The notes under the pieces are model-generated. The model did no database searches. It was not told where the DNA came from and worked only from the letters and a program-made list of their open reading frames with translations. A DNA stretch of 64,000 nt from Candidatus Nomurabacteria bacterium (GTDB lineage Bacteria > Patescibacteriota > Minisyncoccia > Phycocordibacterales > UBA9973), in NCBI GenBank assembly GCA_963832025.1, contig CAWHSF010000003.1, positions 207,665-271,664 on the forward strand. The letters are read 5' to 3'. A program made the translations under genes and the position numbers. Positions 1-60,941 of the stretch are shown piece by piece. The number at the start of each line of letters is the position of its first letter. Position 1 is the stretch's first letter.

Positions 1-623
1 GCAGCACAAGAATTTATACCAATTAAAGAAGTCCGCGATGGAATAATCGTGTTAAAAAACGACGAGCTGCGGGCGATCGTTTTGGCCAATTCAATCAATC
101 TTTCCTTAAAATCAAACGATGAACAACAGGCAACTATTTTGCAATTTCAAAATTTTCTCAACACCTTGGATTTTCCAATACAAATATCGGTTCAGTCAAG
201 AAGACTGGATATTAGACCGTATCTTTTGCTTTTAGAAGATAGACTTAAGGTGCAAAGTGAGCCATTACTTAAACTGCAAACAAAAGAATACATAGAGTTC
301 ATTAAAAATTTTACTGACTACTGTGGCGATAATGACTAAAAGTTTTTTTGTGGTAGTGCCTTATACCCATACAACTTTAAAATCAGATTCTGGAATTTTT
401 GGAAGTTTTTTCTCTAAAAAGAGTAAAGAACAAACACAAGCAATGGCAGCAAGTTGATTTTGAAGAAAAAAGATCACAATTGGAGGAGAGAGTTGCTGTC
501 ATCCAGCAGGGTCTCGGGCGTTGTGGAATAAATTCTGCTCAGCTGGGAACCGAAGAAGTCGTGGAAGTTTTTTATAAAGTTTTCAATCCGGGAGAAGTTG
601 AAGGAAAAATAAAAGTTGAATAA
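1..623 (+). pseudogene. VirB4/TrbE-like ATPase, N-terminal region split over three reading frames (1-339, 302-457, 399-623)
   Basis: Open from base 1 (AAQEFIPIKEVRDGIIVLKND...). It continues as ...MTKSFFVVVPYTHT... in the +1 frame, then ...EERVAVIQQGLGRCGINSAQLGTEEVVEVFYKVFNP in the next +1 frame. Contiguous with the ATPase ORF at 616. Confidence 0.5.
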
Positions 624-2478
624 AAATATGATGGAATTTTTTAAAAAATTATTTGGTAAGAAAACATCCGCCAAAAAAGACGAGGCACAAATTTCCACTT
701 TGGCGGTTTTACCGGAAGAAATTTACAAATCTGCCAACCTGGAACTCCAGGATATCATTGCGCCATCAGCCTTAAAAATTGAATCTAAATCAATAAATTT
801 GGGCGAAAAAATTGCTCGCACTTTTTTTATCATATCTTATCCGAGATTTTTGAATGATAATTGGTTTTCTCCGATAATAAACTTGGATAAAGTTTTTGAT
901 ATTGCGATTTTTATCCATCCGATAGACACCTCGCTCATGCTCCGACAATTTCAAAAAAAGGTGGCCGAAGTGCAAAGCCAGATAAGCGTGCGTGAAACAA
1001 AAGGCATGGTACGTGACCCGATGCTTGATACCGCCTACCAAGACTTGGAAGGCCTGCGTGACAACTTAATTCAAGCGCAAGAAAAAATGTTTGATGTCGG
1101 TGTTTACATCACAATTTATGCGGACAACGAAATGGAACTTTTCAAAATTGAAAATGAAATAAAATCAATGTTGGAATCAAAGCTTATTTACATCAAACCA
1201 GCGCTTTTCCAACAAGAAGAAGGTTTTAAAAGTGTCATTCCGACAGAAACAGACTTATTGAACATTCATCAAAAATTAAATTCAGAGCCGCTTTCCAGTG
1301 TTTTTCCATTCATTTCTTCCGACCTGACTTCCGACAAAGGAATACTTTACGGTATCAACCGAACAAATTCCAGTTTGGTTATTTTTGATAGATTTTCCTT
1401 GGAAAACTACAATTCCGTAACCTTTGCCAAGTCCGGTTCTGGAAAATCTTATGCGACAAAATTGGAAATATTGAGGTCTTTGATGTTTGATACTGACGTC
1501 ATTGTGATAGACCCGGAAAGGGAATACGAATTTTTGGCTGAAGCTGTGGGCGGAAGATATTTTAATATTTCTCTTTCTTCGGAACACCACATCAATCCTT
1601 TTGATTTGCCGATGCCCCGCGAAGACGAAACAGCTGAAGATGTGTTACGTTCAAATATAATAAATTTGGTTGGACTTTTGCGTTTGATGTTGGGTGGACT
1701 CACTCCAGAAGAAGATTCCATGGTGGACCGAGCCATTTCGGAAACTTATGCGATGAAAGATATTACTCCGGAATCAGATTTTTCAAATATTGATCCTCCG
1801 CTTCTTTCCGATTTTGAAATGGTACTTTCCGGAATGGACGGAAGTGATTCCGTGGTGCAAAGACTGGTGAAATATACACGTGGCTCTTGGGCAACATTTT
1901 TAAACAGACCATCCAACGTAGACATTAATAAAAAATTCGTGGTATTTTCCGTTCGCGACATGGAAGACGAATTAAAACCAGTTGCCATGTATATCGTCAT
2001 GCATTATATTTGGACCGAGGTACGCAAAAATCTAAAAAAGCGTTTGCTCGTAGTGGATGAAGCTTGGTGGATGATGAAATCTGAAGACACCGCATCATTT
2101 TTGTATTCCATCGCCAAAAGAGGCAGAAAATATTATCTCGGCCTTTCCACCATCACCCAAGATGCGGCTGATTTTATGAAATCTCCATACGGAGTACCGA
2201 TAATCACCAACTCTTCTATCCAGCTTTTGTTAAAACAATCACCAACCACAATCGATATCTTGCAAAAAACTTTCAATCTGACGGATGAAGAAAAATATTT
2301 GCTTTTGGAGTCAAATGTTGGGGAAGGAATATTTTTTGCCGGACTAAAACACGTCGCGATAAAAATAATTGCTTCTTATACCGAAGACCAAATTATTACT
2401 TCCGACCCTTCTCAAATATTATCGAATAGAAAAGCTAAACAAGAACAGGAAGTAGCCGAAGAAGGGGGTAAGGTTTAA
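616..2478 (+). CDS. virB4: VirB4-like type IV secretion/conjugation ATPase (ATPase portion)
   Basis: 620-aa ORF; Walker A AKSGSGKSYATK; Walker B LLVVDEAWW; VirB4-like middle region YPRFLNDNWFSPII. Confidence 0.75.
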   Translation: MNKNMMEFFKKLFGKKTSAKKDEAQISTLAVLPEEIYKSANLELQDIIAPSALKIESKSINLGEKIARTFFIISYPRFLNDNWFSPIINLDKVFDIAIFIHPIDTSLMLRQFQKKVAEVQSQISVRETKGMVRDPMLDTAYQDLEGLRDNLIQAQEKMFDVGVYITIYADNEMELFKIENEIKSMLESKLIYIKPALFQQEEGFKSVIPTETDLLNIHQKLNSEPLSSVFPFISSDLTSDKGILYGINRTNSSLVIFDRFSLENYNSVTFAKSGSGKSYATKLEILRSLMFDTDVIVIDPEREYEFLAEAVGGRYFNISLSSEHHINPFDLPMPREDETAEDVLRSNIINLVGLLRLMLGGLTPEEDSMVDRAISETYAMKDITPESDFSNIDPPLLSDFEMVLSGMDGSDSVVQRLVKYTRGSWATFLNRPSNVDINKKFVVFSVRDMEDELKPVAMYIVMHYIWTEVRKNLKKRLLVVDEAWWMMKSEDTASFLYSIAKRGRKYYLGLSTITQDAADFMKSPYGVPIITNSSIQLLLKQSPTTIDILQKTFNLTDEEKYLLLESNVGEGIFFAGLKHVAIKIIASYTEDQIITSDPSQILSNRKAKQEQEVAEEGGKV

Positions 2479-2516
2479 TTGTAAGGTTCATAGAGTAGAA
2501 AGTCGCAAAGCTTGTA

Positions 2517-2525
2517 TGGTATAAT
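2517..2525 (+). promoter_or_regulatory. extended -10 box TGgTATAAT, 6 nt before ATG 2532 (leaderless-type)
   Basis: tatggtataat-taaatt-ATG read directly. Confidence 0.55.
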
Positions 2526-2531
2526 TAAATT

Positions 2532-3523
2532 ATGAAATTTAGGTTTCTATTACTGCTTTTAGTTACAATAATCATAACAACAGGTGTTATTTCACCGTTT
2601 AAAGTAAGTGCTTCTTCCCCCAGTGATGTTAGTATATCCACCGTTCCAGAAAACCCAGCTCCAAATCAAAATGTAACTATCACATTGAGCAGTTATGTAG
2701 ATGATTTGGATAGTGTTTTAATAACTTGGACTGTAAACGGAAAAAATTCTAGTTCGGGAATCGGCGATAAATCTTTTTCTTTAATCGCTCCAGCTTTGGG
2801 GCAAAAAACGACAGTCATAGCTACCATTTCTTTATCTGATGGAGATTTAAATGAAACGATACCGATAACCCCAGCAATAATGACCATGCTTTGGCAGGCA
2901 AATGATTCTTATGTGCCGCCTTTTTACGAGGGAAAAGCTTTGCCGTCACCGGACAGTGAAATAAAAGTTGTGGCTATGCCGGAAATAAAAAATGGTTCCA
3001 GTTTTGTCAATCCCACAAATATGACTTATGATTGGCAACTAGATGAAAACAATCGATGCGGACAATTCCGGTTATGGGAAAAATTCTTATATTTATGTAA
3101 GTGATTATTTGGATAATTCAAACAATGTTAGCGTGACAGCTTCTACTTTAGACCAACAAGACTTCAGTGGATGGAAGCTTAAATGTAGCAACCGTAAATC
3201 CAAAAATAGATTTTTATAAAGATGACCCAACTTTGGGAACTGTTTGGGAGAAGCAGTTTCAGATGGTATCAAGATTACGGGAAATGAAATTATTACAAGC
3301 TGCTCCATATTTCATATCACCAAAAGAGTTTAAGAATTCCTTTTTTGACATGGACCTGGTCTTTGAATGGAGCAACAGATTGCCGTGTCATCTTATAGTA
3401 GTAACATTATTGCCACTACAACTGCAAAACGGCATTCATGGAACATCTCAAATAGGCCTAGAGGTGAGCAATATTCACAGCTTGGTCAACACAGCCAGCA
3501 AGGAAATTAATGTAAATTTTTAA
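2532..3523 (+). pseudogene. secreted protein with signal peptide, interrupted by two +1 frame changes (2532-3104, ~3051-3219, 3167-3523)
   Basis: N-terminal signal peptide MKFRFLLLLLVTIIITTG. The sequence continues as IDADNSGYGKNSYIYVSDYLDNSNNVSVTASTLDQQDF in the +1 frame, then (V)DGSLNVATVNPKIDFYKDDP in the next +1 frame. Confidence 0.45.
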
Positions 3524-3529
3524 CATGAG

Positions 3530-3609
3530 TCCCGTTAGAAGTAACTTCTAATAATAACAATGTAATGATAAAAAACTATAAACAAAATAAAATAACTTCT
3601 AACGGGATG
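3530..3609 (+). repeat. intercistronic hairpin cassette, family G copy 3 (3' arm ends on ATG 3607)
   Basis: Left arm TCCCGTTAGAAGT (3530-3542). Proximal complement ACTTCTAA (3544-3551). Distal perfect complement ACTTCTAACGGGA (3595-3607), followed by TG. Confidence 0.7.
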
Positions 3610-4752
3610 AAAAAACTTTTATCGTACTTAATAATATTCATTGCGCTGGTCGCGATATTTGGCCCAACAATAAGAGTAAATGCACAGACATGCAATATGA
3701 ATGGTTATGATGGTAGCCCTACGGGAGCGTGTGATTATGGTGGCACCCCTGACTATACTGATTTTCAATCCACCCAAACTGAATGTAATGCTCAAATTGC
3801 CGCCAAGGATGCAGTATCTTTTATTCCTGACACATATGGGGTATGTACTATAAATGGTTCAGCAAATGCATGTTGGACAAAAACATCCTGTATACAAAAT
3901 AAGGGAACTTTTGCCGGTTACTATAATTTGTTACAGCCCCTTCCTGGAGTAGGCGCAACGTTTAATCCCATAAGCACTCCTGGTCAGCCAACTAGCTTGA
4001 GTAGCTACTTAAACCCAATGATAAATATTTTCATTGGTATTTGCGCAGTATTGGCTGTGATAATGATCTTAATGGGTGGAATTGAATACATGACAAGTGA
4101 ATTAATCTCAAGCAAAGAAGCAGGAAAGGAAAGAATAAGGAATGCTCTGCTTGGGCTTCTCTTGGCCCTCGGTGCTTGGAGTATTCTTAATACAATAAAT
4201 CCTAACTTACTTAAGTCTGATGTAAGTATTCCAGATGCAAATGTAACTACAAATATAACAGCGCAAAATTTTGCAAACTCTCCCTCAACGTACATTGTTC
4301 CTCTTGGCCAAACAGGAAAAACAAGTGGTACAAACTGTGATGAAAATGCAATTTCTACATCTAATCAAACGGCAAGCTCCGGTCTTAATAGTTCCCAGAT
4401 ACAGACACTTGCTTGTATAGGTGGGATAGAAAGCGGTTGTAACTCAGTCGTAAACTACAACTGGAATAATGGATCCTCTGCATATGGGCCTTTCCAGATA
4501 ACATTACAAACAAATGCTGGTTGTTTTGAAAATAGTGTTTGTCAGCAAGCAGCTGGAGTAAGTGGACCCCTTAATTGTGCCGCTGGATTCCATAATGGAA
4601 ATCCCATACCGGGTTCTCTAATTGTGGCACAATGCATGAAGGCTGCTGATAATTTTACCTGTAGTGTAGCTGCTGCCGCGTGTTTAATAAAACAGAACCC
4701 GAACTATAGCGACTGGAACGCAAACGGCAATCTTTCAAAATGCACATCATAA
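3607..4752 (+). CDS. T4SS-pilin-like protein (two hydrophobic helices) with Cys-rich N-terminal part and lytic-transglycosylase-like C-terminal region
   Basis: Signal peptide MKKLLSYLIIFIALVA. TrbC/VirB2-style hairpin IFIGICAVLAVIMILMGGIEYMTSE...ALLGLLLALGAWSILNTINPNL. The C-terminus has E-S...YGPFQI, resembling the SLT catalytic motif. The longest ORF starts at 3565; start 3607 is preferred. Confidence 0.55.
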   Translation: MKKLLSYLIIFIALVAIFGPTIRVNAQTCNMNGYDGSPTGACDYGGTPDYTDFQSTQTECNAQIAAKDAVSFIPDTYGVCTINGSANACWTKTSCIQNKGTFAGYYNLLQPLPGVGATFNPISTPGQPTSLSSYLNPMINIFIGICAVLAVIMILMGGIEYMTSELISSKEAGKERIRNALLGLLLALGAWSILNTINPNLLKSDVSIPDANVTTNITAQNFANSPSTYIVPLGQTGKTSGTNCDENAISTSNQTASSGLNSSQIQTLACIGGIESGCNSVVNYNWNNGSSAYGPFQITLQTNAGCFENSVCQQAAGVSGPLNCAAGFHNGNPIPGSLIVAQCMKAADNFTCSVAAAACLIKQNPNYSDWNANGNLSKCTS

Positions 4753-4768
4753 TTTAACCATAACTTTT

Positions 4769-6154
4769 ATGTCAAAAAGAAATTTTATACTTTTAATAAT
4801 CGTTCTCATTATCATCATCCTTGCTGTTTTTGGATTTTTGTTTTTCAACAAGCCAAGTGGTCAATCAGGAGGGAACACAACTGGCACAAATTTCTTTTCG
4901 CAATTTAATCCTTTTGCAAATGTCAAACCAAAAACACCGGTAACGACACCAGTGCAAACGCCGACAACGACACCAACGACAACTTCAACTCTTAATTTAA
5001 AACTGAAAGAAGTTTCCAGTATGCCAATAGCGGGTTTTACGATATTCAGCAAAGAAAGGTTGGTGCCAGTGGTAACAGCTACGACATCTTCAACCACCCC
5101 GCCTTCGGCACCCCTCCTTAATCAAGGAGGGGAAGGGGGTGGTAATTCTTCTTCCGCAACAAAAAAAACAACTATTAAAACAACCAAGCCAACTGCGCCA
5201 CCGACGGAAATGGCTCTAGCGTTAAGGTATGCTGCCAAGGCAACAGGAAATATTTATGAAACCTTTGCAGACACAATACAAGAAGGTCAATTTTCAACGA
5301 CAACAATCCCTGAAGTTTACGATGCTTATTTTGGAAACAACGGAAACTCGGTGGTGATGAGATACTTATCAGGAGACGAAGAAACGATTGAAACTTTTCT
5401 CGGAACATTACCAAAAGAAATTTTTGGTGCAGACACAATCGCCAACAATCAAATCACAGGGTCGTTGTTACCAAATAATATAAAAAGTATTAGTTTGTCA
5501 CCTGATACATCAAGCATGTTTTATTTATTTGACAGTGGAGACAGCATGATAGGCACAACTCTTAATTTTACAACCAATAAAAAAGTGCAAATTTTTACTT
5601 CTCCATTTACTGAATGGTCTTCCGGTTGGGGAAACAGTAAAATCATTACTCTTACCACAAAACCTACTTCGGGAATTCCCGGATATGTTTATGAAATGGA
5701 TCAAACTGGAAAAAATTTAAACCAGACTTTGGGAAACATTAATGGGCTTACCGCCTTACCTAGCCCGGACGGAAAATTTATACTTTATGGTGACAATAGT
5801 TTAAATTTAAATATTTACAATAAAAGCACCAATACTTCGACTTTGTTGGGAGTTAAAACTCTACCAGAAAAATGTGTCTGGAACAGTGGAAGTACCACAG
5901 TGTATTGCGCTGTACCAAAAGCTATCCCAGTAAACCAGTATCCGGATGCTTGGTATCAAGGAGAAGTTTCTTTTAATGATCAATTTTGGAAAATTAATGT
6001 TGGGACCGGAAACACCACTATGCTTGTAGACCCGATCACAATGCCCGGAGGGCAAGAAATTGATGGAATCAAACTTGCGGTAGATAGCGCTGAAAATTAT
6101 TTATTTTTTGTAAACAAAAAAGATTCTTATCTTTGGGAATTTTCTCTTAAATAG
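4769..6154 (+). CDS. membrane-anchored exported protein with Thr/Pro-rich linker and beta-propeller-like C-terminal part (hypothetical)
   Basis: 461-aa ORF; N-terminal TM LLIIVLIIIILAVFGFLFF; TPVTTPVQTPTTTPTTT linker; TolB-like PDGKFILYGDNS segment. Confidence 0.5.
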   Translation: MSKRNFILLIIVLIIIILAVFGFLFFNKPSGQSGGNTTGTNFFSQFNPFANVKPKTPVTTPVQTPTTTPTTTSTLNLKLKEVSSMPIAGFTIFSKERLVPVVTATTSSTTPPSAPLLNQGGEGGGNSSSATKKTTIKTTKPTAPPTEMALALRYAAKATGNIYETFADTIQEGQFSTTTIPEVYDAYFGNNGNSVVMRYLSGDEETIETFLGTLPKEIFGADTIANNQITGSLLPNNIKSISLSPDTSSMFYLFDSGDSMIGTTLNFTTNKKVQIFTSPFTEWSSGWGNSKIITLTTKPTSGIPGYVYEMDQTGKNLNQTLGNINGLTALPSPDGKFILYGDNSLNLNIYNKSTNTSTLLGVKTLPEKCVWNSGSTTVYCAVPKAIPVNQYPDAWYQGEVSFNDQFWKINVGTGNTTMLVDPITMPGGQEIDGIKLAVDSAENYLFFVNKKDSYLWEFSLK

Positions 6155-8285: not shown

Positions 8286-9626
8286 ATGAATACGAAACAA
8301 CTTTGGAAAAATTGCTTAGCGGAAATCGAAACTGGTATATCAAAAGCAAATTTCAGCACTTGGTTTAAAAACACCTCTATTGTAAGAGAAGATACCGGCA
8401 TTATCTATATTGGAGTACCAAATGAGTTCGTTCGTGACTGGCTAATGAATAAATACCACAAACTTATCACCAAAACCATCGCGGATGAATACGAAAATAT
8501 GCGCGCCGTGGAATATACGATTTCTAAAATAGAAAACCTGAGCCAAGAAGTAACCATCACGAAAGAAACTATTGAAAAAGAACTGCCCTTGAAGGATTTA
8601 TACATTAATCCAGAAGATAATTTAAACCCACGCTACCATTTCAATTCTTTTATCGTGGGAACTTTCAACGAACTTGCCTATGCAGCGGCACAAGCAATCA
8701 TAGAATCTCCCGGAACTAAATATAACCCGTTCTTCATTTACGGAGGCACCGGATTGGGGAAAACTCACCTGATTCAAGCGGTTGGGAACTCCATCAAAGA
8801 AAAATATCCAAATAAAAAAGTTCATTATATGACCTTGGAAAAATTTGCGACAGATTTTATAAATTCTCTGCAAAACAACAAAGCAAACTCCTTTAAAGAA
8901 AAATATCGCAAATACGACCTTTTAATCATAGATGACATTCAATTTATCGGGAAAATGGAAAAAATCCAAGAGGAACTTTTCCACACATTCAACACTTTTT
9001 ACGAAAACAACAAACAAATTATTTTTTCTTCCGACAAACACCCCAATTACATTCCGGAGTTGGCCGATCGTTTAAAATCTCGTTTTGCCGCCGGTATGAT
9101 TGTAGACATTTCGGAACCGGAATATGAGTCTCGTTTAGCAATCTTGAAAGTGAAACTGCGAGAACAAAACATTGAATTAGAAGAAGAACTTGTTGAATAT
9201 GTCGCAAGCTCCGTGCAGGGAAATATTCGCGAGCTAGAGGGGAGTTTAAATCTTATCGTTTGCCAATATCGCTTGAAAAATAAGCCTCTAACGCTCCTCG
9301 AGGTGAAAAACTTGTTAAAAAACAACATGAAACCCAAAAAGAATATGGCCATCAAAGATGTTGTAAAAATTGTGAGTGAATATTATAAACTTGAAGAACT
9401 CTCTGTTTATGAAAAGACTAGAAAAAAAGAAATAGTTAAGGCTAGGCAGATTGTGATGTATCTGCTCCGAGAAGACTTTAATGTTTCTTATCCTTTGATT
9501 GGACAAAAGCTAGGAGGGAAAGACCATACCACGGTTATACACTCTTGTTTAAAAATTAAAAAAGATTTAAAGAACGACCCACAACTTTTGCAAGAACTGG
9601 AACAAATAAGGATAATGTTCAAATAG
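8286..9626 (+). CDS. dnaA: chromosomal replication initiator DnaA
   Basis: 446 aa; AAA+ Walker A GGTGLGKTHL; C-terminal DNA-binding domain (...GGKDHTTVIHS...). Confidence 0.95.
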   Translation: MNTKQLWKNCLAEIETGISKANFSTWFKNTSIVREDTGIIYIGVPNEFVRDWLMNKYHKLITKTIADEYENMRAVEYTISKIENLSQEVTITKETIEKELPLKDLYINPEDNLNPRYHFNSFIVGTFNELAYAAAQAIIESPGTKYNPFFIYGGTGLGKTHLIQAVGNSIKEKYPNKKVHYMTLEKFATDFINSLQNNKANSFKEKYRKYDLLIIDDIQFIGKMEKIQEELFHTFNTFYENNKQIIFSSDKHPNYIPELADRLKSRFAAGMIVDISEPEYESRLAILKVKLREQNIELEEELVEYVASSVQGNIRELEGSLNLIVCQYRLKNKPLTLLEVKNLLKNNMKPKKNMAIKDVVKIVSEYYKLEELSVYEKTRKKEIVKARQIVMYLLREDFNVSYPLIGQKLGGKDHTTVIHSCLKIKKDLKNDPQLLQELEQIRIMFK

Positions 9627-9841
9627 ATTTGGTAACTTGTTGAAAAGATGTTAAAGAAAATTGATAAGAAGTGATTTTAAAATTTAAAAATTTTTAAAGA
9701 CAAAACAAATAAAAGTTATTAGACCCAGAATAAAAATAAAAAACAAAAAAACCCCTAATAAATATTACTAATTAAAGTATTCCACTTATCAACAGAACTA
9801 ATATTATTAATAATTTATATATAAAAGATATAAACAAATAT
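9627..9841. other. AT-rich dnaA-dnaN spacer, putative DNA unwinding element / oriC segment
   Basis: 215 bp, almost entirely A/T. DnaA-box-like TTATCAACA at 9786-9794, adjacent to TATTCCACT. Confidence 0.45.
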
Positions 9842-10939
9842 ATGAAACTAGAATGTTCAATTGAAAAAATTAAAAACGCGGTTGCTCAAGTGGAAAGAAT
9901 AACCGGGAAAAATTTAACCTTACCAATACTTAGTTCGGTTTTACTTATTGCATCTTTAAAATCTTTAAAGTTAAGGTCTACGAACTTAAGTCTTGGTATT
10001 GAAATAGAAATTCCCGCAAAAATAGATCGTGAAGGGACCCTGGCTATTTCTGGTTCGGTTTTAAATTCAATTTTTTCAAATGTTTCCCAAAATGAAAATG
10101 TAAATTTAGAAGAAAAGGATGGAAATTTACTTATTAAAACAAATAAGACTCAAATAAGACTCAAAAGTCAGCCCCATGAAGATTTTCCGACAATCCCGAC
10201 GGTAAACGGAACCAGTTTTGAAATAGAATCAAAAAAATTAATCGATGGGATAAAATCGGTTTATTACAGCTCTTCTGTTTCAGACATAAAACCGGAAATT
10301 TCAAGTGTTTTTATTTATACAAATAATGACAACCTGGTTTTTGTCTCTACAGACTCTTTCAGATTAGCGGAAAAGAAAATTAAAACTAAAGGAGTTCCCG
10401 AAATTTTGGGCATCCTTATTCCCTTTAAAAACATTACCGAAATATTAAAGATTTTTGGCGAACTTCAAGGTTTAATAAAAGTTTGTTTCAATAAAAACCA
10501 AATTTCTTTTTCCACGGAAAATATTTATTTAACTTCCAGGGTAATTGATGGAATTTTCCCGGACTACCGTCAAATTATTCCCAAAAATTTTACCACGGAA
10601 ATTGTTGTTCTAAAGCAAGACTTGCTAAATGCGCTTAAACTTTCGAATATATTTTCTGACAAATTCAACCAAGTTAATCTCAAGGTTCTTCCAAAAGAAA
10701 AGATTTTTGAGCTTTCTTCAGCAAACAACGATATTGGAGAAAACAAAACTTATTTAGATGCGGTGATAAAAGGAGAAAACATTGAATTAGGCTTCAATTA
10801 TAAATACTTTTGGGATTGTTTCGTTTCTATTACTACCGACAGTGTTTCTATAAGATTATCCGGAAGTGGCAAACCAATAGTTGTTTCTCCTGTTTCTGAC
10901 CCATTATTTACTTATCTCATCATGCCGATGAATAAATAA
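9842..10939 (+). CDS. dnaN: DNA polymerase III beta sliding clamp
   Basis: 365-aa ORF immediately after dnaA; clamp-like length and C-terminus (...YLIMPMN). Confidence 0.9.
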   Translation: MKLECSIEKIKNAVAQVERITGKNLTLPILSSVLLIASLKSLKLRSTNLSLGIEIEIPAKIDREGTLAISGSVLNSIFSNVSQNENVNLEEKDGNLLIKTNKTQIRLKSQPHEDFPTIPTVNGTSFEIESKKLIDGIKSVYYSSSVSDIKPEISSVFIYTNNDNLVFVSTDSFRLAEKKIKTKGVPEILGILIPFKNITEILKIFGELQGLIKVCFNKNQISFSTENIYLTSRVIDGIFPDYRQIIPKNFTTEIVVLKQDLLNALKLSNIFSDKFNQVNLKVLPKEKIFELSSANNDIGENKTYLDAVIKGENIELGFNYKYFWDCFVSITTDSVSIRLSGSGKPIVVSPVSDPLFTYLIMPMNK

Positions 10940-10953
10940 AAACTTAAAATTTA

Positions 10954-11023
10954 TCCCGTACTAAATTTTAATTAAAACAAATGAACACTATTATTAAAAA
11001 TTTAAAATTTTAGTACCGGGATG
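10954..11023 (+). repeat. intercistronic hairpin cassette, family G copy 1 (3' arm ends on ATG 11021)
   Basis: Left arm TCCCGTACTAAATTTTA (10954-10970). Right arm TAAAATTTTAGTACCGGGA (11003-11021), followed by TG. Starts 15 nt after the dnaN stop. Confidence 0.7.
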
Positions 11024-11278
11024 ATTGAAATAAAAGATTTACTTAGTCGTTTTAGTGAAATTCTTCTAGGGGAAGAAGGGAAAAAAGAAGCTGTTAGAGA
11101 CGTAATTTCGTCTGTTATTCAGGTAAAAATAAAATCTGAAGATATAAAAATAAAAAATAATATTATTTATTTAAACATCAAACCTATTTACAAAAACGAA
11201 ATTTTTATTAAACAAGAAAAAATTTTTCTCGCACTAAAAGAAGCTCTCGGTAAAAAAGCACCAGAAAGTCTTAGGTAA
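11021..11278 (+). CDS. small protein, possibly DUF721/DciA-like
   Basis: 85-aa ORF after dnaN. The position and the C-terminal pattern (NNIIYLNIKPIYKNEIFIKQEKIFLALKEALG) resemble DUF721. Weak call. Confidence 0.35.
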   Translation: MIEIKDLLSRFSEILLGEEGKKEAVRDVISSVIQVKIKSEDIKIKNNIIYLNIKPIYKNEIFIKQEKIFLALKEALGKKAPESLR

Positions 11279-19469: not shown

Positions 19470-19937
19470 ATGACTAGCGGAATAAAAAAAATATCGAAAA
19501 GCGTAAAAGAAACAAGTAAAATAGCAAAAATATTTATTGAAGAAGTTCTGAAAAATAGCAAAACCGACCAAGGCGCTTTTGTGGTTGGCTTGGTTGGGAA
19601 TTTAGGGGCAGGCAAGACAGCTTTTGCGCAAGCTGTCGCCAAACACCTGGGAGTAAAAAATAAAGTTAGTAGTCCAACTTTTGTAATTATGAAAAAATAT
19701 CCCCTAAAAAAAAATCAGAAAAATAAAAAATATGACTTTTTATTTCACTTAGATGCTTATCGCCTAAAAAATGAGCAAGAATTATTGTATTTGGGGTGGC
19801 AAGAAATTTTAGACAACGAGAAACACCTTGTCTTTATTGAATGGCCGGAAAATGTATCCAAAGTTATGCCAAAAAATATCAAGTATATTCATATTTCCGA
19901 CCAAAAAGATGGGCAAAAAGTTTTCAAATTTAAATGA
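19470..19937 (+). CDS. tsaE: tRNA t6A37 biosynthesis ATPase TsaE
   Basis: P-loop GNLGAGKTAF; SPTF motif; HLDAYRL. Confidence 0.8.
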   Translation: MTSGIKKISKSVKETSKIAKIFIEEVLKNSKTDQGAFVVGLVGNLGAGKTAFAQAVAKHLGVKNKVSSPTFVIMKKYPLKKNQKNKKYDFLFHLDAYRLKNEQELLYLGWQEILDNEKHLVFIEWPENVSKVMPKNIKYIHISDQKDGQKVFKFK

Positions 19938-19943
19938 TATAAT
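19935..19943 (+). promoter_or_regulatory. extended -10 box TGaTATAAT upstream of polA
   Basis: Overlaps the tsaE stop codon. Followed by the family H hairpin and then ATG 19993. Confidence 0.4.
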
Positions 19944-19947
19944 TCCA

Positions 19948-19981
19948 CTTGTTGGACAACAATTTCCCGTTGTTCGACAAG
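19948..19981. repeat. family H palindromic repeat (degenerate copy) in polA leader
   Basis: CTTGTtggACAACaatttcccGTTGTtcgACAAG; compare 39233-39268 and 53515-53551. Confidence 0.55.
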
Positions 19982-19992
19982 AAAGACAAAAA

Positions 19993-22434
19993 ATGAAAAC
20001 GGAAAATAAAAATTCAACTAAAACAATGGTCCTATTAGATGCTCACGCGATAATACATCGCGCCTATCATGCGTTGCCGGAGTTTTTATCATCCAGCGGT
20101 GAACCTACTGGCGCTCTGTACGGGCTTTCCAGCATGTTGATGAAAATTATCACCGAACTCAAACCGGACTATATTGCTGCTTGTTATGATTTGCCGCAAA
20201 AAACTTTTCGTCACGAAGCTTATGATGCCTACAAAGCTGGCCGGGCAAAAACAGATGAAGCACTGGTGGTGCAACTAAAAAAATCCAGACAAATTTTTGA
20301 AGCTTTCAACATACCTATTTATGATGCCCCTGGTTTCGAGGCGGATGATGTTTTGGGAACAATCGTTGAAAAATATAAAAAAGACAAAAGCATCAATATC
20401 ATTATCGCTTCTGGAGACATGGATACGATGCAGTTGGTTGATGATAAGAAAGTTCAAGTTTACACTCTAAAAAAAGGAATCAATGAAACCATTTTATATG
20501 ACGAAGATGCAGTAATGGAACGTTTCCATTTCAAACCGAAACTTTTGCCGGACTACAAAGGTTTGCGTGGCGACCCATCGGATAACATTATTGGCATAAA
20601 AGGCATTGGAGAAAAAACAGCGGAAAATTTAATTGTCAATTTTGGAACCATCGAGGAAATATATAAAAAAATAAAAAAAGACAAAGAAGCTTTCGTGAAA
20701 GCAAACATAAGCCTCAGAATAATTGAATTATTGAAAGAGAACGAAGAGGAAGCTCTGTTTTCAAAAACATTAGCGACCATTCGCAAAGATGCGCCGATAA
20801 ATTTTACATTACCGGCAAAAACTTTTTGGGAAAACATTGACTCTAAAAAAGTGGAACAAGTTTTCATGGATTTTGAGTTTAAAAGTTTGATGGCTCGCTT
20901 GAAGAATTTTTTTAGCGAGAATTCGACGGGTGTTGCTCAGAGGAGTCTTCGCAACGACCAGAAAGAACTTGCCCTTCCAGGACGGGGTGCGAACGACGGC
21001 GAGCAATATCCACCGAATTCTCAAATCATTAATCCTCAAAAGTTGCAAGAAGCCAGCATTGTTCTTTGGCTCATCAATTCCGATATTTCTACTCCTGGCT
21101 TAGAAGATATGTATTTCTTTGCAAAGACTGAGTCTTTTGATGTGGCTTATGAGTACATTTTTAAACAGCTAAAAGAAAGAAAGTTAGATAAAGTATATGA
21201 AGAAATCGAAAAACCGATTATTGGTGTCGTAAAAAAGATGGAAGATTTTGGAATTCTGATAGATAAAAAATATTTTGAAAAATTATCTCTTGAATACCAC
21301 AAAGAATTGGATATTTTGACCAAAAACATTTACAAAATGGCTGGAACAGAATTTAATATTAATTCTCCAAAACAGCTAGGCGAAATTCTTTTTGGTAAGC
21401 TTGGCATGAAATCTGGTAAGAAAAAAAGTGCCAATGGTAGTTTTTCCACCAAGGTTTCCATTCTGGAAGACCTTGCCGAAGAAAATGAAATTATTAAAGA
21501 AATTTTAGCTTACAGAGAGTTACAGAAATTGCTTTCTACCTACGTTGATGTCATTCCAAAAATGGCAGGGCCAGATGGACGACTGCATTCAAAATTTATA
21601 CAAAATGCCACTACAACTGGCAGGTTTTCTTCAATTGACCCAAACTTGCAAAATTTACCAATTAAAACAGAATTAGGTAGAAGAATCCGTGGTGGTTTCG
21701 TAGCTTCCAAAAATCATAAGCTAGCAGCTTTTGATTATAGCCAAATTGAATTACGGGTGGCAGCGATACTTTCCGGAGACAAAAACATGACTGAAATATT
21801 CCGTGACCGCAAAGACATTCATGCCGGAGTCGCCTCTTTTGTTTTTGGTGTGCCGATAGAGCGTGTTGATAGTGAAATGCGTCGCCGAGCAAAAGTCATC
21901 AACTTTGGCATTATTTACGGCATGGGGGTTTCTGCCTTACGAAAAAATCTGGGAGGTACCCGTGAAGAAGCGCAAAAATTTTACGATAATTATTTTAATC
22001 AATTTTCTGGAGTGCGAGATTATTTAGAAAGCGTGAAAATGTTTGCTGCTAAAAATTCCTTTACAGAGACATTGTTTGGTCGTAGGCGTTACTTCCCAAA
22101 TATCAATTCCCGAATTCCTTTTTTGAAAAACACGGCTGAACGTACTGCGACCAATGCTCCACTGCAAGGCACAGCCGCTGATATTATCAAACTTGCTATC
22201 AGATACGCTGAAGAAGATTTAAATAAAAAAGGATTGCTTTCGAAAGTTCATCTCGTGCTTCAAATCCATGATGAACTGGTTTACGAAATAGAAGATGATG
22301 TTTTAGAAGAGGCTGATAAAATAATAAAGCAGGCGATGGAAGAGGTGCTAGAAAGATCATATTTGCATTACAAAACAGACATTCCTTTACTGGTTCGCTC
22401 TGGTTTTGGTGACAATTTTGGGGAAGTAAAATAA
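19993..22434 (+). CDS. polA: DNA polymerase I (5' nuclease + polymerase domains)
   Basis: 5'-nuclease N-terminus (LLDAHAIIHRAYHAL); polymerase motifs DYSQIELRV and QIHDELV. The ORF is open from 19828, but ATG 19993 follows tsaE. Confidence 0.9.
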   Translation: MKTENKNSTKTMVLLDAHAIIHRAYHALPEFLSSSGEPTGALYGLSSMLMKIITELKPDYIAACYDLPQKTFRHEAYDAYKAGRAKTDEALVVQLKKSRQIFEAFNIPIYDAPGFEADDVLGTIVEKYKKDKSINIIIASGDMDTMQLVDDKKVQVYTLKKGINETILYDEDAVMERFHFKPKLLPDYKGLRGDPSDNIIGIKGIGEKTAENLIVNFGTIEEIYKKIKKDKEAFVKANISLRIIELLKENEEEALFSKTLATIRKDAPINFTLPAKTFWENIDSKKVEQVFMDFEFKSLMARLKNFFSENSTGVAQRSLRNDQKELALPGRGANDGEQYPPNSQIINPQKLQEASIVLWLINSDISTPGLEDMYFFAKTESFDVAYEYIFKQLKERKLDKVYEEIEKPIIGVVKKMEDFGILIDKKYFEKLSLEYHKELDILTKNIYKMAGTEFNINSPKQLGEILFGKLGMKSGKKKSANGSFSTKVSILEDLAEENEIIKEILAYRELQKLLSTYVDVIPKMAGPDGRLHSKFIQNATTTGRFSSIDPNLQNLPIKTELGRRIRGGFVASKNHKLAAFDYSQIELRVAAILSGDKNMTEIFRDRKDIHAGVASFVFGVPIERVDSEMRRRAKVINFGIIYGMGVSALRKNLGGTREEAQKFYDNYFNQFSGVRDYLESVKMFAAKNSFTETLFGRRRYFPNINSRIPFLKNTAERTATNAPLQGTAADIIKLAIRYAEEDLNKKGLLSKVHLVLQIHDELVYEIEDDVLEEADKIIKQAMEEVLERSYLHYKTDIPLLVRSGFGDNFGEVK
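20917..21022 (+). repeat. family A palindrome-ended repeat, in-frame inside polA
   Basis: TIR GAGAATTCG...CGAATTCTC. The core matches the reverse complement of 24739-24830. Confidence 0.8.
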
Positions 22435-23699: not shown

Positions 23700-25949
23700 A
23701 TGCAAAAAAATATTTTTAAATTAAAGAATTTATGGGAACCAGCGGGGGATCAGCCGAAGGCTATTTCTAAGCTGGTAGAAGGTTTAGAGAAGGGAATGAA
23801 GAAACAAACATTGTTGGGCGCAACCGGAACTGGCAAAACTTTTACCATGGCCAATGTCATTGCGCAGTACAACAAACCGACGCTCGTAATAGCTCACAAC
23901 AAAACTCTGGCTGCCCAGCTCGCGCAAGAATTTCGCCAGTTTTTCCCCGATGCGGCCGTGCATTATTTTGTTTCTTATTATGACTATTATCAACCGGAAG
24001 CATATATGCCTGCTTCGGATACTTATATCGAAAAAGATGCTTCCATCAATAAAGAAATAGATATGCTTCGTCACGCCAGCACACAAGCATTACTTACCAG
24101 GCGTGACGTGATTATCGTCGCTTCGGTTTCCTGTATTTATGGGCTGGGTTCTCCCGAAGAATATGAAAAAGTAAATTTAAAACTTGAACTTGGCATGAAA
24201 CTGGACCGCATGACTTTAATGAGAAAACTGATTGAGATTCATTTTGAAAGAACCAACGCGGATTTGAGTCCAGGGCAATTTCGTTCGATTGGTTCGCGAG
24301 TGGAATTTATGCCGGTGTCGGAGACTGTCATGTATCAAATAGAATTTGGAACGTCGGACCTTAAGGGGATTCAAGGTCCGACGTTAACAAAAATAATCAA
24401 AGTTGATCCGGTATCCTCGAAAATAATCGAAGAAATAAAACCCGCCGAAGGACGGGCAGGCATTTTCATTTTTCCGGCAAAACATTTTATTACTGAAGAA
24501 GTAAAAAAGCAAAAGGCATTGATTGAAATTAAAAAAGAATTAAATAAACAATTGAAAAAATTTGAAAAAGAAGGAAAGTTGCTCGAAGCTGAGCGTATTA
24601 AGAGAAGAACAAACTATGACCTAGCGATGATTCGCGAAGTTGGTTATTGCAACGGCATCGAAAATTATTCTCGGCATCTGTCGGGTAAATTGGAAGGTGA
24701 ACCGCCAGAAACTCTGCTTTCATATTTTCCGCATAGGGCTCGAGATTATTCTCGCCGTCGTTCGCACTCCGTCCTGGAAGGGCAAGAAAGTTCTGGTCGC
24801 AACGAAGACTCCTCTGAGAACAATCTCGAACCCGATTTCCTTACGATTATAGATGAATCGCATGTTACACTTCCGCAACTGCAAGGCATGTATGCCGGAG
24901 ATGCTTCCAGAAAAGAAACCCTAGTAGAATATGGATTCAGATTGCCATCAGCTAAGGACAACAGACCCCTTAAATTTAATGAATTTGAAGAAAGAATAAA
25001 TAATGTAATTTATACTTCTGCCACACCTGGAGAATTTGAAAGATCTAATAGTAATCAAACAGTAGAACAGATAATCAGACCCACTGGTTTGGTTGATCCA
25101 GAAATAGAAGTAAAGTCGGTAAGCGAAAAAGAAGATTACAAGGGCCAAATTCAAGATTTTATTTTTGAGACAGAAAAAACAATCAAAAAAGGTTTCCGCG
25201 TTTTAGCGACCACCCTCACAAAAAAAATGGCGGAGGACCTCTCAACATATTTGAAGGATAAAAAAATCAAAGCGGAATATTTACATAGTGATATAAAAAC
25301 AATGGAACGAATAAAAATTCTCACTCAGTTTAGAAAAGGAGAATTTGATGTTTTGGTTGGAGTAAACTTACTTCGCGAGGGACTTGATTTACCTGAAGTT
25401 GCTTTAATCGGTATTTTAGATGCTGATAAATCCGGATTTTTACGTTCGGAAACAGCGCTAGTGCAAACCATCGGTCGCGCAGCCAGAAATAGCGAAGGAA
25501 AAGTTATTCTATATGCGGACATCATGACTCCGGCCATGGAATATGCTATTTCCGAAACTACTCGCCGGAGAAATATTCAGCTTGCTTATAATAAAAAACA
25601 TGGTATCACTCCGAAGACAATTATGAAAAAGATAAATGACATTACCGAAGAGTTGGAAAGTGAACATGGGAAAACAGTGAATGCGGAATTAAACCTTGAT
25701 TTGGAAGTTTTCAAACGAGCTTACGCCAAAGAGTTAAAATTAGACAAAAGTAAACTAACAAAAAAGAATGGACTAACTGAAGTTAAATTACACATGTCCG
25801 ACGAAGAGAGAAGCAACTTAGTCTATGAAAAAATAATAAAAATCAAGGAAAAAGAAATGAGTAAAGCAGTTAAAGAATTGGATTTCGAAACCGCAGCGAT
25901 TCTGCGTGATGAAATTGGAGTTTTGAAATTACGTTTGGAGAAAAAATAA
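23700..25949 (+). CDS. uvrB: excinuclease ABC subunit B
   Basis: GATGTGKTF; DESHVTLPQ; helicase C motifs; C-terminal UVR domain (FETAAILRDEI). Carries three inserted repeat segments. Confidence 0.95.
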   Translation: MQKNIFKLKNLWEPAGDQPKAISKLVEGLEKGMKKQTLLGATGTGKTFTMANVIAQYNKPTLVIAHNKTLAAQLAQEFRQFFPDAAVHYFVSYYDYYQPEAYMPASDTYIEKDASINKEIDMLRHASTQALLTRRDVIIVASVSCIYGLGSPEEYEKVNLKLELGMKLDRMTLMRKLIEIHFERTNADLSPGQFRSIGSRVEFMPVSETVMYQIEFGTSDLKGIQGPTLTKIIKVDPVSSKIIEEIKPAEGRAGIFIFPAKHFITEEVKKQKALIEIKKELNKQLKKFEKEGKLLEAERIKRRTNYDLAMIREVGYCNGIENYSRHLSGKLEGEPPETLLSYFPHRARDYSRRRSHSVLEGQESSGRNEDSSENNLEPDFLTIIDESHVTLPQLQGMYAGDASRKETLVEYGFRLPSAKDNRPLKFNEFEERINNVIYTSATPGEFERSNSNQTVEQIIRPTGLVDPEIEVKSVSEKEDYKGQIQDFIFETEKTIKKGFRVLATTLTKKMAEDLSTYLKDKKIKAEYLHSDIKTMERIKILTQFRKGEFDVLVGVNLLREGLDLPEVALIGILDADKSGFLRSETALVQTIGRAARNSEGKVILYADIMTPAMEYAISETTRRRNIQLAYNKKHGITPKTIMKKINDITEELESEHGKTVNAELNLDLEVFKRAYAKELKLDKSKLTKKNGLTEVKLHMSDEERSNLVYEKIIKIKEKEMSKAVKELDFETAAILRDEIGVLKLRLEKK
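24350..24385. repeat. 36-bp perfect hairpin in-frame inside uvrB
   Basis: AACGTCGGACCTT-aaggggattc-AAGGTCCGACGTT (13-bp perfect arms); encodes GTSDLKGIQGPT. Confidence 0.7.
24441..24460. repeat. short GC-rich hairpin in-frame inside uvrB
   Basis: CCCGccgaaggaCGGGcagg encodes PAEGRAG; shares its terminal CGGGCAGG with the yebC insert. Confidence 0.35.
24739..24830 (-). repeat. family A palindrome-ended repeat, in-frame inside uvrB (inverted relative to polA copy)
   Basis: TIR CTCGAGATT...AATCTCGAA. Encodes ...RARDYSRRRSHSVLEGQESSGRNEDSSENNLEP between conserved YFP and DFLTIIDESH. Confidence 0.8.
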
Positions 25950-36557: not shown

Positions 36558-36660
36558 GCTCAAAATATATTTTATAAAGCAATCTATCTCCGCAAGCTTG
36601 CGGAGCGAACCTGCTCGGCTACCCGCCTGCGCAAGACTTTCTAAAACATATTTTCTGAGC
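36558..36660 (+). repeat. family F intergenic palindromic element, copy 2
   Basis: Outer TIR GCTCAAAATATATTTTATAAAG / CTTTCTAAAACATATTTTCTGAGC. Inner palindrome CTCCGCAAGCTTGCGGAG (36588-36605). The core is identical to copy 1. Confidence 0.75.
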
Positions 36661-37059: not shown

Positions 37060-38590
37060 ATGGCAAAAGAAGAAGGCGGAAGGGAGAAAAACAAGGAAAC
37101 AATAGTCAGATTTGAAAATGTCTCATTTGAATGGGGAGTAACATAAGCCTATTTTAGAAGAGGTGAGCTTCACCATTCGGCGAGGCATGAAACTCACGTT
37201 GATGGGGCAAAATGGCGCTGGAAAAAGCACCATTTTTAGTTTAATCTCTGGGCTATCGGTCCCTGAGTCTGGAATAATCAACGTTGTTAAAGGGGTGAGT
37301 ATCGCAAACTCCTTGCAAGTAATTCCTCGCGACCAAATGGATTCTACTGTACGAGAATTTTTCGCAAATTGTTTTAAGGAAAAAGTTTATGATATTGACC
37401 CACGGATTGATGACATTTTAGAAGTAGTAAACCCCCACACCAAAAATTTTGGTGTGGGGGTAAATCTTAAGGGTCACGCGAAAATTCACGACAGAAAAAT
37501 AAATACTTTCTCTGGTGGGCAACAAGCGCGACTGCTTTTGGCTTCCGCCCTCATTCGAGATCCAGATTTACTATTATTGGATGAACCAACAAACAATTTA
37601 GACAAAGCCGGAATTGCTCACCTCACAAATTTTCTAGTAAATTACAAAAAAACAGTTCTAGTTATTTCCCACGATGCGGAATTTTTAAATGCTTTCACTG
37701 AAGGAGTGCTTTATTTAGATGTTTATACAAAAAAAGTTGAACAATATGTCGGTAACTATTTTAATGTGATGAAAGATATTACTGCGCGAGTAGAAAAAGA
37801 AAATATGAAGAACGCACAACTTCAAAAGGAAATTCAAGCCAAGAAAGACCAAGCAAATGTGTTTGCATATAAAGGCGGACGTTTGAGATTGGTAGCAAAG
37901 CGAATGCGAGAAAAGGCTGAAGAATTGGAAGAGGAAATTGTGGACGTTCGAAAAGAAGATAAAGCCATCAGGCCTTTTGTTATTCCTTCACAGCCAGACT
38001 TGATCGGGGAAATTTTAAACATCTCTTCTTTTACCACGATGGTGAATGGAAAAATTGTAAAACGGAAAGCACGTATTTCTTTAAATAAAAAACAACATTT
38101 GCTTTTACAAGGACCAAACGGAATTGGAAAAACAACACTCTTGGAAAGACTGGCGAGCGGAAAAGCCGAAGGAGAGAAAGTAAAAGAGGGAATACGTATC
38201 GGATATTATAGGCAAGATTTTTCCACGCTCAATTTTGAACATTCAGTTTATGAATCTTTGGCAGAAGCGATGATTGAGGGTGGAGAAAAATTAAATGAGG
38301 AACATATGCGTTCAGTTGCCGCGGGATTTTTAATTACTGGAGAATTTATTCGCACAAAAATTAAAGATTTATCCGAAGGACAAAAAGGGCTAGTGGCTTT
38401 TGCGAGATTGGTTTTACAAAAACCCGGACTCCTCATTTTGGATGAGCCAACAAACCATATAAATTTTCGTCACTTGCCAATAATCGCAGAAGCATTAGAT
38501 AAATATGCCGGTGCAATGATTCTCGTTTCCCACGTGCCCGAATTCGTCAAACAAATTAGGATTGATGAAGTACTTGATCTAGAAAAGTAG
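37060..38590 (+). CDS. ABC-F family ATPase, N-terminus displaced by a +1 frame change near 37138-37144
   Basis: MAKEEGGREKNKETIVRFENVSFEWGV (ATG 37060) stops at 37144. The +1 frame continues HKPILEEVSFTIRRGMKLTLMGQNGAGKST. Second module GPNGIGKTT. No TM domains. Confidence 0.8.
37431..37470 (+). repeat. family E hairpin repeat, in-frame inside the ABC-F gene
   Basis: ACCCCCACACCAAAA-a-TTTTGGTGTGGGGGT plus the flank AAATCTTAA; encodes NPHTKNFGVGVNLK. Confidence 0.7.
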
Positions 38591-55758: not shown

Positions 55759-55905
55759 AAATTTGGACAAACGAAAAAGCCACAGAGACTCTTCCTAAAT
55801 AATTTAGATAAATCTAAGTGACTTGTGTGATTTGCTTCCGATTGGAAGAAATGTGGGCTTTGGGGGTCCGCGGCGGACCCCCAGTCCCGTGTTCCGCGCC
55901 TTCAG

Positions 55906-56040
55906 CTAGTCGGCCGGCTCGGTGTTGTCAGCGCAGAAGTTGGTGTTGAGGCCGGTGCTACCGCGGGTGTCGGTGAGGCCTTCGCATACGACATTGGCAT
56001 TCGGGTTGGCGCAGGAGGCGCCGAGACAGCGTTTGTTCAT
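55906..56040 (-). CDS. 44-aa Cys-containing peptide encoded in a high-GC islet (foreign-looking)
   Basis: MNKRCLGASCANPNANVVCEGLTDTRGSTGLNTNFCADNTEPAD. 35 of 43 codons after ATG end in G/C. AAGGAG lies 7 nt upstream of ATG. GC stem-loop GGGGGTCCG-cgg-CGGACCCCC lies downstream. Confidence 0.5.
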   Translation of the reverse strand: MNKRCLGASCANPNANVVCEGLTDTRGSTGLNTNFCADNTEPAD

Positions 56041-60739: not shown

Positions 60740-60778
60740 ATGTGCTAATTTTAAACAGTATTTATGAATAAACATTTG

Positions 60779-60851
60779 CGCGCTTAGCTCAGTTGGTAGA
60801 GCAACTCATTTACACTGAGAAGGTCGGGGGTTCGAGTCCCTCAGCGCGCAC
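60779..60851 (+). tRNA. tRNA-Val (anticodon UAC)
   Basis: Acceptor GCGCGCT/AGCGCGC; anticodon loop TTTACAC; T-arm GGGGG-TTCGAGT-CCCTC. Confidence 0.9.
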
Positions 60852-60869
60852 TAGAGCCTTAGAGAAATG

Positions 60870-60941
60870 CCCTCGTAGTTCAATGGATAGAACAGAGCTC
60901 TTCTAAGGCTTCGATGTAGGTTCGATTCCTACCGAGGGCAC
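60870..60941 (+). tRNA. tRNA-Arg (anticodon UCU)
   Basis: Acceptor GCCCTCG/CGAGGGC; anticodon loop CTTCTAA; T-arm GTAGG-TTCGATT-CCTAC. Confidence 0.9.

Follow-up and report, generated by a model that had tools for sequence, protein, structure and literature searches.

A stretch of 64,000 nucleotides from a Candidatus Nomurabacteria bacterium (assembly GCA_963832025.1, contig CAWHSF010000003.1, positions 207,665 to 271,664; hereafter the window) was found to carry two copies of a GC-rich palindromic segment, designated family A, one inside polA and one inside uvrB (Table 1). PolA was identified from the domains PF02739, PF01367 and PF00476 (5′-3′ exonuclease and family-A polymerase) and UvrB from a domain set that includes PF12344 and PF17757. 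The polA copy was located in the linker between the 5′-nuclease domains and the polymerase part of the protein. The uvrB copy was located between YFP and DFLTIIDESH, immediately ahead of helicase motif II. The GC content of family A segments was 52–58% compared to 37.8% for the window as a whole.

The initial annotation of this DNA, which was made from its letters and predicted open reading frames (ORFs), had described a perfect 9-bp terminal inverted repeat in the polA segment and a core that recurs, reverse-complemented, in uvrB. The terminal repeat (GAGAATTCG...CGAATTCTC, 20917/21022) was present, and made up the outer end of an imperfect inverted repeat of 22 bp, the two halves of which were 82% complementary. 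The uvrB copy had a 21-bp inverted repeat of its own, with a sequence that differed from that of the polA copy. Formal alignment of the two copies, which lie on opposite strands, showed 85% identity over 75 nt (20936–21010 against 24744–24818). BLASTN aligned 68 nt with 88% identity and a highly significant E-value (9.6e-16), and nhmmer returned an E-value of 4e-30. The recurrence of the core was thus upheld; the identity counted by hand, 67 of 79 positions, was close to the formal value but had to be corrected to 64 of 75. No third family A copy was found in the window by nhmmer or by a covariance model.

Both copies were free of stop codons in the frame of their host gene, as had been stated. 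Five of the six frames were open in the polA copy, and four in the uvrB copy. The polA copy was read by its host in a frame designated A-plus (...ENSTGVAQRSLRNDQKELALPGRGANDGEQYPPNS...) and the uvrB copy in a frame designated A-minus (...RARDYSRRRSHSVLEGQESSGRNEDSSENNLEP...), and the peptides that had been given for the antisense and shifted ORFs (AVVRTPSWKGK...) were reproduced on translation. The two host ORFs had also been called essential, a description that is too strong for uvrB, which is not strictly an essential gene.

Table 1. Positions of family A, of its host genes and of other in-frame hairpin elements of uvrA and uvrC in the window
Feature	Position	Strand	Remarks
Family A element, polA copy	20917..21022	+	106 nt; covariance-model score 116.6 bits
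Left arm, polA copy	20917..20938	+	GAGAATTCGACGGGTGTTGCTC
Conserved core, polA copy	20939..21000	+	inner stem GTCTTCGC/GCGAA(C)GAC; apical stem CTTG/CCAGG
Right arm, polA copy	21001..21022	+	GAGCAATATCCACCGAATTCTC
Family A element, uvrB copy	24733..24836	-	~98–104 nt; covariance-model score 113.9 bits; orientation opposite to polA copy
Inverted repeat, uvrB copy	24733..24753 / 24816..24836		21 bp
Conserved core, uvrB copy	24754..24815	-	
Host gene polA	19912..22434	+	product identical to database protein P0002 (841 aa)
Host gene uvrB	23700..25949	+	P0122, 749 aa
Second-family element, uvrA	26509..26600		in frame; ORF 26256–28760
Second-family element, uvrC	29195..29286		in frame; ORF 28834–29826
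Third-family element, uvrC	29614..29701		in frame; peptide ..FSGLLQPSAGTFPVQN..

Occupied and empty sites in related genomes

Exact-pattern scans of genome and metagenome collections gave five further loci with family A, and more were obtained from the DNA of PolA orthologs. Together, the window and 11 loci represented 12 independent contigs and 241 kb of DNA, in which 13 copies of family A were found at four sites. All 13 were intragenic and in frame. The polA linker was occupied in the window, L002, L004, L007, L008, L009 and L011. Two sites were found in uvrB; site 1 (before DESH) was occupied in the window, L005 and L009, and site 2 (RPVSE^GQI) in L001 and L007. The fourth site was in a KsgA/RsmA-like gene of L003 (ksgA; P0001 carries PF00398). 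Site 1 of uvrB was filled and site 2 empty in the window and L009, the reverse was true of L001 and L007, and both sites were empty in L008. The relatives had been deposited as Candidatus Nomurabacteria, Paceibacterota, Minisyncoccia or Patescibacteria, and a scan of viral contigs found no family A. A six-frame profile of the element peptides, searched against a database of 5.8 billion proteins, matched only P0001 (a KsgA fragment) with an E-value of 0.13; a match of 25 aa cannot reach significance in a database of that size.

The polA segment had been proposed to be an insertion, with an ancestral linker as the objection to be considered. This objection does not hold because empty sites exist in both PolA and UvrB orthologs. 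In the window the PolA linker (FEFRSL...LQEASI) comprised 63 aa, as against 36 aa for L014 and 39 aa for L010, and the short linkers of close orthologs spanned 36–44 aa. A short linker without an insert was present in 10 of the 110 close PolA orthologs that could be classified, and most of the others carried unrelated inserts at this point. The phmmer alignment of PolA with solved polymerases does not span the linker. At site 1 of UvrB the sequence was YFP-KTG-FLTIIDESH in L007 and L008 and YFP-DE-FLT in L013, and approximately 44 of 120 UvrB orthologs (75–87% identity) had just 2–4 residues there. In solved UvrB structures, YFP (residue 330) is followed by DFL.I.DESH (residue 332), so that one residue stands where the window has 34.

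The 110 PolA orthologs, taken from the set P0002–P0121, were then divided by the occupant of the linker. Family A was read in the minus frame in 25 orthologs and in the plus frame in 4. Family B (KESFGAGLAGVGDPENRGPEKTLLS) was present in 23 orthologs, family C (EFSQVLGSPGPQTPARPFENSL) in 24, family D in 8, family E in 5 and family F in 2, with other inserts in 9 and an empty linker in 10. Approximately 90% of the orthologs therefore had some hairpin insert at the linker, and these belonged to at least six unrelated families. Families B, C and D also occurred at uvrB site 1. Parsimony on a 110-tip neighbour-joining tree of the rest of PolA required at least 63 changes of linker occupant, a value that is an upper-side estimate because the tree is weakly resolved. 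Some inserts were composite: family A with a partial inverted family A (P0020), family C with a family A tail (P0040, P0053 and P0221) and family A within family B arms (P0064). The polA copy of L004 was nearest to the uvrB copy of L005 (70/73) and not to any other polA copy. Additionally, approximately 11 UvrB orthologs had a 7–8 aa sequence of the form H..(K/E)..PD at site 1 (e.g. HDKNGKPE and HKENEAD) in place of KTG or a full element, and these remnants resemble the footprints that deletion would leave where a hairpin element was excised or had collapsed. Other recurrent insert points of PolA carried NPRQGGASL, TPARNASGIADAGGDS and NPVRGREGSQRPSASNG.

These observations bear on an explanation without mobility, namely an ancestral, fast-evolving, low-complexity linker whose similarity to the uvrB segment arose by gene conversion or by chance. 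The occupation of the same sites in many orthologs is consistent with inheritance, and the low copy number is a further point in favour of this explanation. However, the similarity (E 9.6e-16) is far beyond chance, similar segments are read in different frames and orientations, and the same core is found at four unrelated positions, including ksgA. Empty sites in close and distant orthologs and the number of changes of linker occupant also speak against it, and we consider this explanation highly improbable.

Hairpin architecture and conservation of the core

Each window copy was predicted to fold end to end as one long hairpin (−44 and −41 kcal/mol with RNA parameters), and with DNA parameters the stability of the hairpin corresponded to a z-score of approximately −2.3 relative to shuffled sequences. 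The central 73 nt aligned without gaps across all copies. The core was asymmetric (approximately 62–73 nt), the inner stem (..TKCTC / GAGMA..) was semi-conserved, and the outer stem of 10–15 bp was specific to each copy. The arms, which were 18–22 bp, were thus self-complementary in each copy though they differed between copies. This was reflected in local alignment scores of 6–17 for an arm with its own partner, compared to 5.5 ± 1.7 across copies. The outer arms of different copies gave a background score (5.6) when aligned with each other, as was true of left arms compared with left arms, and only the inner 5–10 nt were semi-conserved.

RNAalifold analysis of 12 copies revealed a single hairpin of 32 pairs, of which 19 showed compensatory double changes. 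Paired cells made up 94.8% of the total, compared to 73% in column shuffles and 37–49% when the partner was slid. Doubly changed cells numbered 83 against an expected 29, and the observed score was reached in none of 500 shuffles. One pair inside the core also covaried, being G-C in seven copies and A-U in five. Most stem mismatches were transitions; read in the mRNA sense, there were 14 G.U and 29 A.C mismatches, and in the outer copy-specific stems, counted by hand, 12 G.U and 8 A.C. For most copies the hairpin in the mRNA sense was that of the weaker strand. The lack of a G.U preference in the mRNA strand argues against selection on an mRNA hairpin and fits a process at the DNA level that keeps the arms alike. 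Neither window copy matched an Rfam 15 covariance model at E ≤ 1 or at gathering thresholds.

An origin of the outer arm from the host flank and an inverted copy of it (a target-derived palindrome) was considered because the right arm of L005 enters the conserved GAT TTC (D F) codons, and because of L001. This idea was not generally supported, as the uvrB arms of the window end at a P codon and the arms of orthologous copies appear to be diverged versions of each other.

The core was more conserved than its surroundings. Its identity between genomes averaged 87.5%, compared to 76.6% for the flanking 900 nt of polA and 52.7% for third codon positions. In the nine copies that are read in the common frame, the variability of the core at codon positions 1, 2 and 3 was 0.19, 0.18 and 0.17 respectively, which is not the pattern of a sequence under selection for its peptide. 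The A-plus reading (AQRSLRNDQKELALPGR.ANDGE) was confined to the window polA copy and its three closest relatives. All other copies were read from the opposite strand, as.LR[RH]SHSVLEGQ..SGRSEDSSE, and A-plus and A-minus cores were up to 93% identical while encoding unrelated peptides. As there was no codon periodicity and two unrelated frames were in use, the core is conserved at the nucleotide level. This conservation reflects either a function of the DNA or RNA, or copies that are younger than the divergence of their hosts.

The host frame was kept in all of the approximately 70 occurrences among the retrieved PolA and UvrB orthologs, which represented many different contigs. Family A was present in 29 PolA orthologs, in approximately 30 UvrB orthologs at site 1 and in 12 at site 2, and broke the frame in none. 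Inserts of other families at these sites were likewise in frame, and length differences amounted to whole codons. Of the four to five frames that are open, only two were in use, and these were the most hydrophilic. At the protein level, approximately 64 of approximately 68 occurrences were A-minus (RRSHSVLEGQ) and the other four were A-plus; A-minus was also the frame in four of the five independent classes of site and orientation. Inserts that are in frame and that use only hydrophilic frames are expected if the segment is translated and tolerable peptides survive, and are unexpected for an intron-like segment that is excised.

Excision would nevertheless be conceivable from the shape of the element. 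The stem of 18–22 bp juxtaposes both junctions, and could join them for cleavage by RNase III or another endonuclease and for RtcB-type religation, giving a protein without the insert. There is an animal precedent in 'SOS splicing', in which excision from mRNA is triggered by paired inverted terminal repeats and uses RTCB (PMC12779559). We regard such removal from RNA as very unlikely for family A, because all of its occurrences and those of the other families are in frame, stop-free and of lengths that are multiples of three, because the restriction to hydrophilic frames would be needless in an excised segment, and because most copies have the weaker of their two hairpins in the mRNA sense. 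No splicing machinery was found, although no search aimed at it was made.

Further in-frame hairpin families were found in uvrA and uvrC. The second family had copies in both genes of the window (Table 1), with a core (GTTCCTCCCTTC..GAGTAC..GGGTCCCACAC) that showed 79% identity between the two. Its arms were 22–25 bp and near perfect, with a common inner part (AAGAAGAATTT) and a copy-specific outer part, which is the same architecture as that of family A. The third family, found in uvrC of the window and built in the same way, was also present in uvrA of L008 and, inverted, in uvrA of L007. Some hairpin insert occupied the uvrA site in six of the six readable loci. The L007 and L008 uvrA elements aligned with a score of 36 to the reverse complement and 12 on the same strand. 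These inverted elements show that changes of orientation at a fixed site are recurrent, which makes inversion in place between the arms a plausible origin of the unusual orientation of the window polA copy. For family A, the case for inversion is drawn from the similarity of the cores and from the clearer uvrA example; shared outer arms were set aside as evidence because they consisted of shared 8–9-mers only. A model of strictly site-specific arms with exchangeable cores was partly contradicted, as the uvrA element of L008 has parts of its arms, and not the core alone, in common with the third-family element in uvrC of the window.

GC-rich in-frame hairpins were also seen in two genes unrelated to repair, at 5051–5160 (ORF 4769–6154) and at 37431–37465 (ORF 37163–38590, an ABC-F-type ATPase). 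The former encodes PPSAPLLNQGGEGG, which resembles family D of the PolA linker (SPPAPLLSGEGGQRPGEV).

A host-beneficial structure acting in cis and under positive selection could take the form of an RNase III or mRNA stability site, a regulator-binding site in the DNA, or a replication or recombination signal that coordinates repair genes. It would agree with a core that is more conserved than flanking coding DNA and lacks codon periodicity, and with compensatory changes that maintain the hairpin. Five of the seven in-ORF hairpin elements of the window lie in polA, uvrB, uvrA and uvrC, the other two being in ORFs 4769–6154 and 37163–38590. However, the sites of close relatives are empty or filled by unrelated families, either orientation is found at the same site, the stem mismatches do not favour the mRNA strand and no Rfam match was obtained. 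Similar hairpins also lie in genes that are not involved in repair (the two ORFs just mentioned and ksgA of L003). Taken together, these findings make a beneficial structure of this kind unlikely.

Origin of family A and comparison with known elements

We consider it likely that family A is a small (approximately 100 nt), GC-rich, non-autonomous palindromic mobile element of the Nomurabacteria/Paceibacteria lineage, within the candidate phyla radiation (CPR), that resembles the Rickettsia palindromic elements (RPEs) and is translated through. It has entered housekeeping genes, presumably at permissive surface or linker positions (the linker of polA, two loops in uvrB, and ksgA). Such an element would be retained only where it is in frame and free of stops, and would be transcribed and translated with its host gene, to which it would add a hydrophilic loop of approximately 24–33 aa. 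The core may be the unit that is recognised or copied by a trans-acting function. Complementarity of the arms may be kept by arm-to-arm template switching or conversion at the DNA level, and not by selection on mRNA structure. The core would also be able to invert in place between the arms, and other hairpin families could re-colonise occupied sites. On the basis of size and architecture alone, family A was judged not to be a group I or group II intron, an intein, a CRISPR repeat or an integron attC site.

Several points weigh against this interpretation. No candidate for a transposase or another mobilising enzyme was found among the 40 ORFs of the window, no direct target-site duplication was evident when filled and empty polA and uvrB sites were compared, and we know of no autonomous relative. 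The family is low in copy number, with two copies in 64 kb, and in the 241 kb it was confined by the covariance model to polA, uvrB and ksgA; its distribution could therefore be largely the result of vertical inheritance of a few old insertions combined with loss. The strong conservation of the core would agree equally well with a function that benefits the host. Translation of the insert as a hydrophilic loop is a prediction from the reading frames. In the AlphaFold2 model of UvrB the insert (residues 347–377) was coil with a predicted local distance difference test score below 50, but the model as a whole was of too low a quality (mean 54) to indicate a surface position.

RPEs are palindromic families of 105–150 bp, and many of them form in-frame fusions with unrelated genes (Ogata et al. 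2000, in the summaries of PMC10969869 and PMC3184786). The behaviour proposed for the segments in the initial annotation was of this type, and the comparison is borne out: like RPEs, family A is one of several short palindromic families in a genome, is found in frame in housekeeping ORFs and adds a conserved extra peptide. It also shares with them a small, AT-rich, reduced host genome, the lack of a known transposase and a similar density (two family A copies per 64 kb). The likeness was drawn from published descriptions of RPEs. The host phylum is different (Patescibacteria/CPR), so that family A does not belong to the RPEs of Rickettsiales in the taxonomic sense. The outer stem of family A is copy-specific and covaries whereas the terminus of an RPE family is conserved. 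Additionally, two orientations and two frames of the family A core are in use, at least six families share one linker site in turn, and 13 of 13 DNA copies are intragenic whereas approximately half of RPEs are intergenic. The statement that no such elements had been described for CPR/Patescibacteria stands insofar as none were found in the full-text literature that was searched, the coverage of which is incomplete. RPE-like in-frame palindromic elements are a known kind; those described here come from a phylum for which that literature gave none, and they show unusual stem dynamics and a striking multi-family hot spot.

Other mobile hairpins share some of these features. GC42, a mobile GC cluster of yeast mitochondria, is 42 nt long and mostly intergenic, with conserved stems, variable loops and an AG target duplication (PMC4478555). 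Yeast GC clusters, like family A, are GC-rich mobile hairpins in AT-rich DNA that are constrained at the nucleotide level, show presence and absence with footprints, undergo mergers and have no known transposase. Unlike GC42, family A has a variable outer stem and a conserved centre, showed no target duplication and lies in frame in ORFs. Bacterial transposable elements of the miniature inverted-repeat type (MITEs) and repetitive extragenic palindromes (REPs) or their hairpin-forming doublets (REPINs), examples of which are Correia, ERIC, RUP, BOX and the REPINs associated with REP-associated tyrosine transposases (RAYTs), resemble family A in being non-autonomous short inverted repeats that form long hairpins. 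Classical MITEs have conserved terminal inverted repeats that match a parent insertion sequence (IS), together with direct target duplications, and REPINs lie outside genes and are linked to a RAYT gene. In contrast to classical MITEs, family A has no terminal repeats that are conserved across copies and no direct target duplication at the polA and uvrB sites. In contrast to REPs and REPINs, all 13 of its copies are intragenic, and no Y1_Tnp match was obtained among the scanned ORFs of the window. Some bacterial elements of the MITE type are intragenic as in-frame fusions (PMC3184786).

Two established mutational mechanisms, template-switch mutagenesis in quasipalindromes and the inversion of DNA flanked by short inverted repeats, would explain arms that are self-complementary yet diverge between copies, and the presence of both core orientations at one site. 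Unlike an element family, however, they are mutational processes and do not explain the spread of the core to new sites.

A more far-reaching version of the mobile element interpretation can be put forward tentatively, although we think it doubtful. In this version, at least six hairpin 'core' elements would form a guild in Paceibacteria/Nomurabacteria and move by a hairpin- or cruciform-directed mechanism, by which cores insert, invert and replace each other inside palindromic stems that persist at fixed, permissive positions in housekeeping genes. A trans-acting enzyme would recognise the core and templated repair would keep the stems symmetric. If this were true, the guild would represent a kind of mobile DNA distinct from both the IS/MITE-like and the REP/RAYT-like modes, and would steadily supply ultra-small genomes with new protein loops.

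The genomes of CPR/Patescibacteria are among the smallest and most streamlined, and are usually called poor in mobile DNA. In the genomes analysed here, replication and repair genes are colonised again and again by hairpin elements of several families, and the turnover of the inserts is fast. With family A as an RPE-like mobile element, this would extend the 'selfish DNA inside genes' of Rickettsia to a second, unrelated group with reduced genomes, and suggests a general outcome of gene-dense, AT-rich, reduced genomes. At these sites, the tolerance of proteins for new loops, and their recruitment of them, can be followed as a natural experiment. The conserved core, the covarying stems and the empty, filled and inverted alleles also provide clean data from which to search for the mobilising function and to study the maintenance of palindromes. 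A practical caveat arises for the annotation, phylogenetics and structure prediction of CPR proteins.

Other features of the window

The genes adjoining uvrB, uvrA and uvrC, both showed apparent frameshifts in the window. In uvrA the frameshift was at approximately 26255–26270, and the N-terminus with its Walker A motif was encoded in another frame upstream of 26256. In uvrC it was at approximately 29810–29825, where the frame switches between KFK and IRTQ with an extra A in AAGAATC. The cause is either a genuine decay of nucleotide excision repair or errors of assembly at homopolymers.

Other repeats were present in the window. One family, located in intergenic DNA or at gene ends, occurred at 30634–30717, 32682–32722 (opposite strand) and 36571–36654. 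In this family a conserved GC-rich tail comes after a covarying internal hairpin (CTGGCAAAGCTTTGCCAG compared to CTCCGCAAGCTTGCGGAG). Another repeat, palindromic and AT-rich (CCCGTACTAAATTTT...AAAATTTAGTACYGGG), was found at 10939–11024, directly after dnaN, and at 28752–28837, after uvrA, and may be a shared terminator-like element. The intergenic region at 55855–55975 contained 120 nt with 69% GC in a genome of 38% GC, and had a very stable predicted fold (−59.7 kcal/mol); it had no Rfam match at gathering thresholds. An ORF at 45035–48967 (minus strand, 1310 aa) encoded a surface-type protein with DUF11/Ig-like features, and long tandem repeats with units of 243 nt and 261 nt lay within it. 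Separately, an exact tandem duplication of 157 nt (60927–61240) adjoined two tRNA genes (60778–60940).

As dnaA and dnaN were located within 8286–10939, the window probably spans the region of the chromosomal origin. Genes resembling those of type IV secretion systems and pilins were present at 616–4752.

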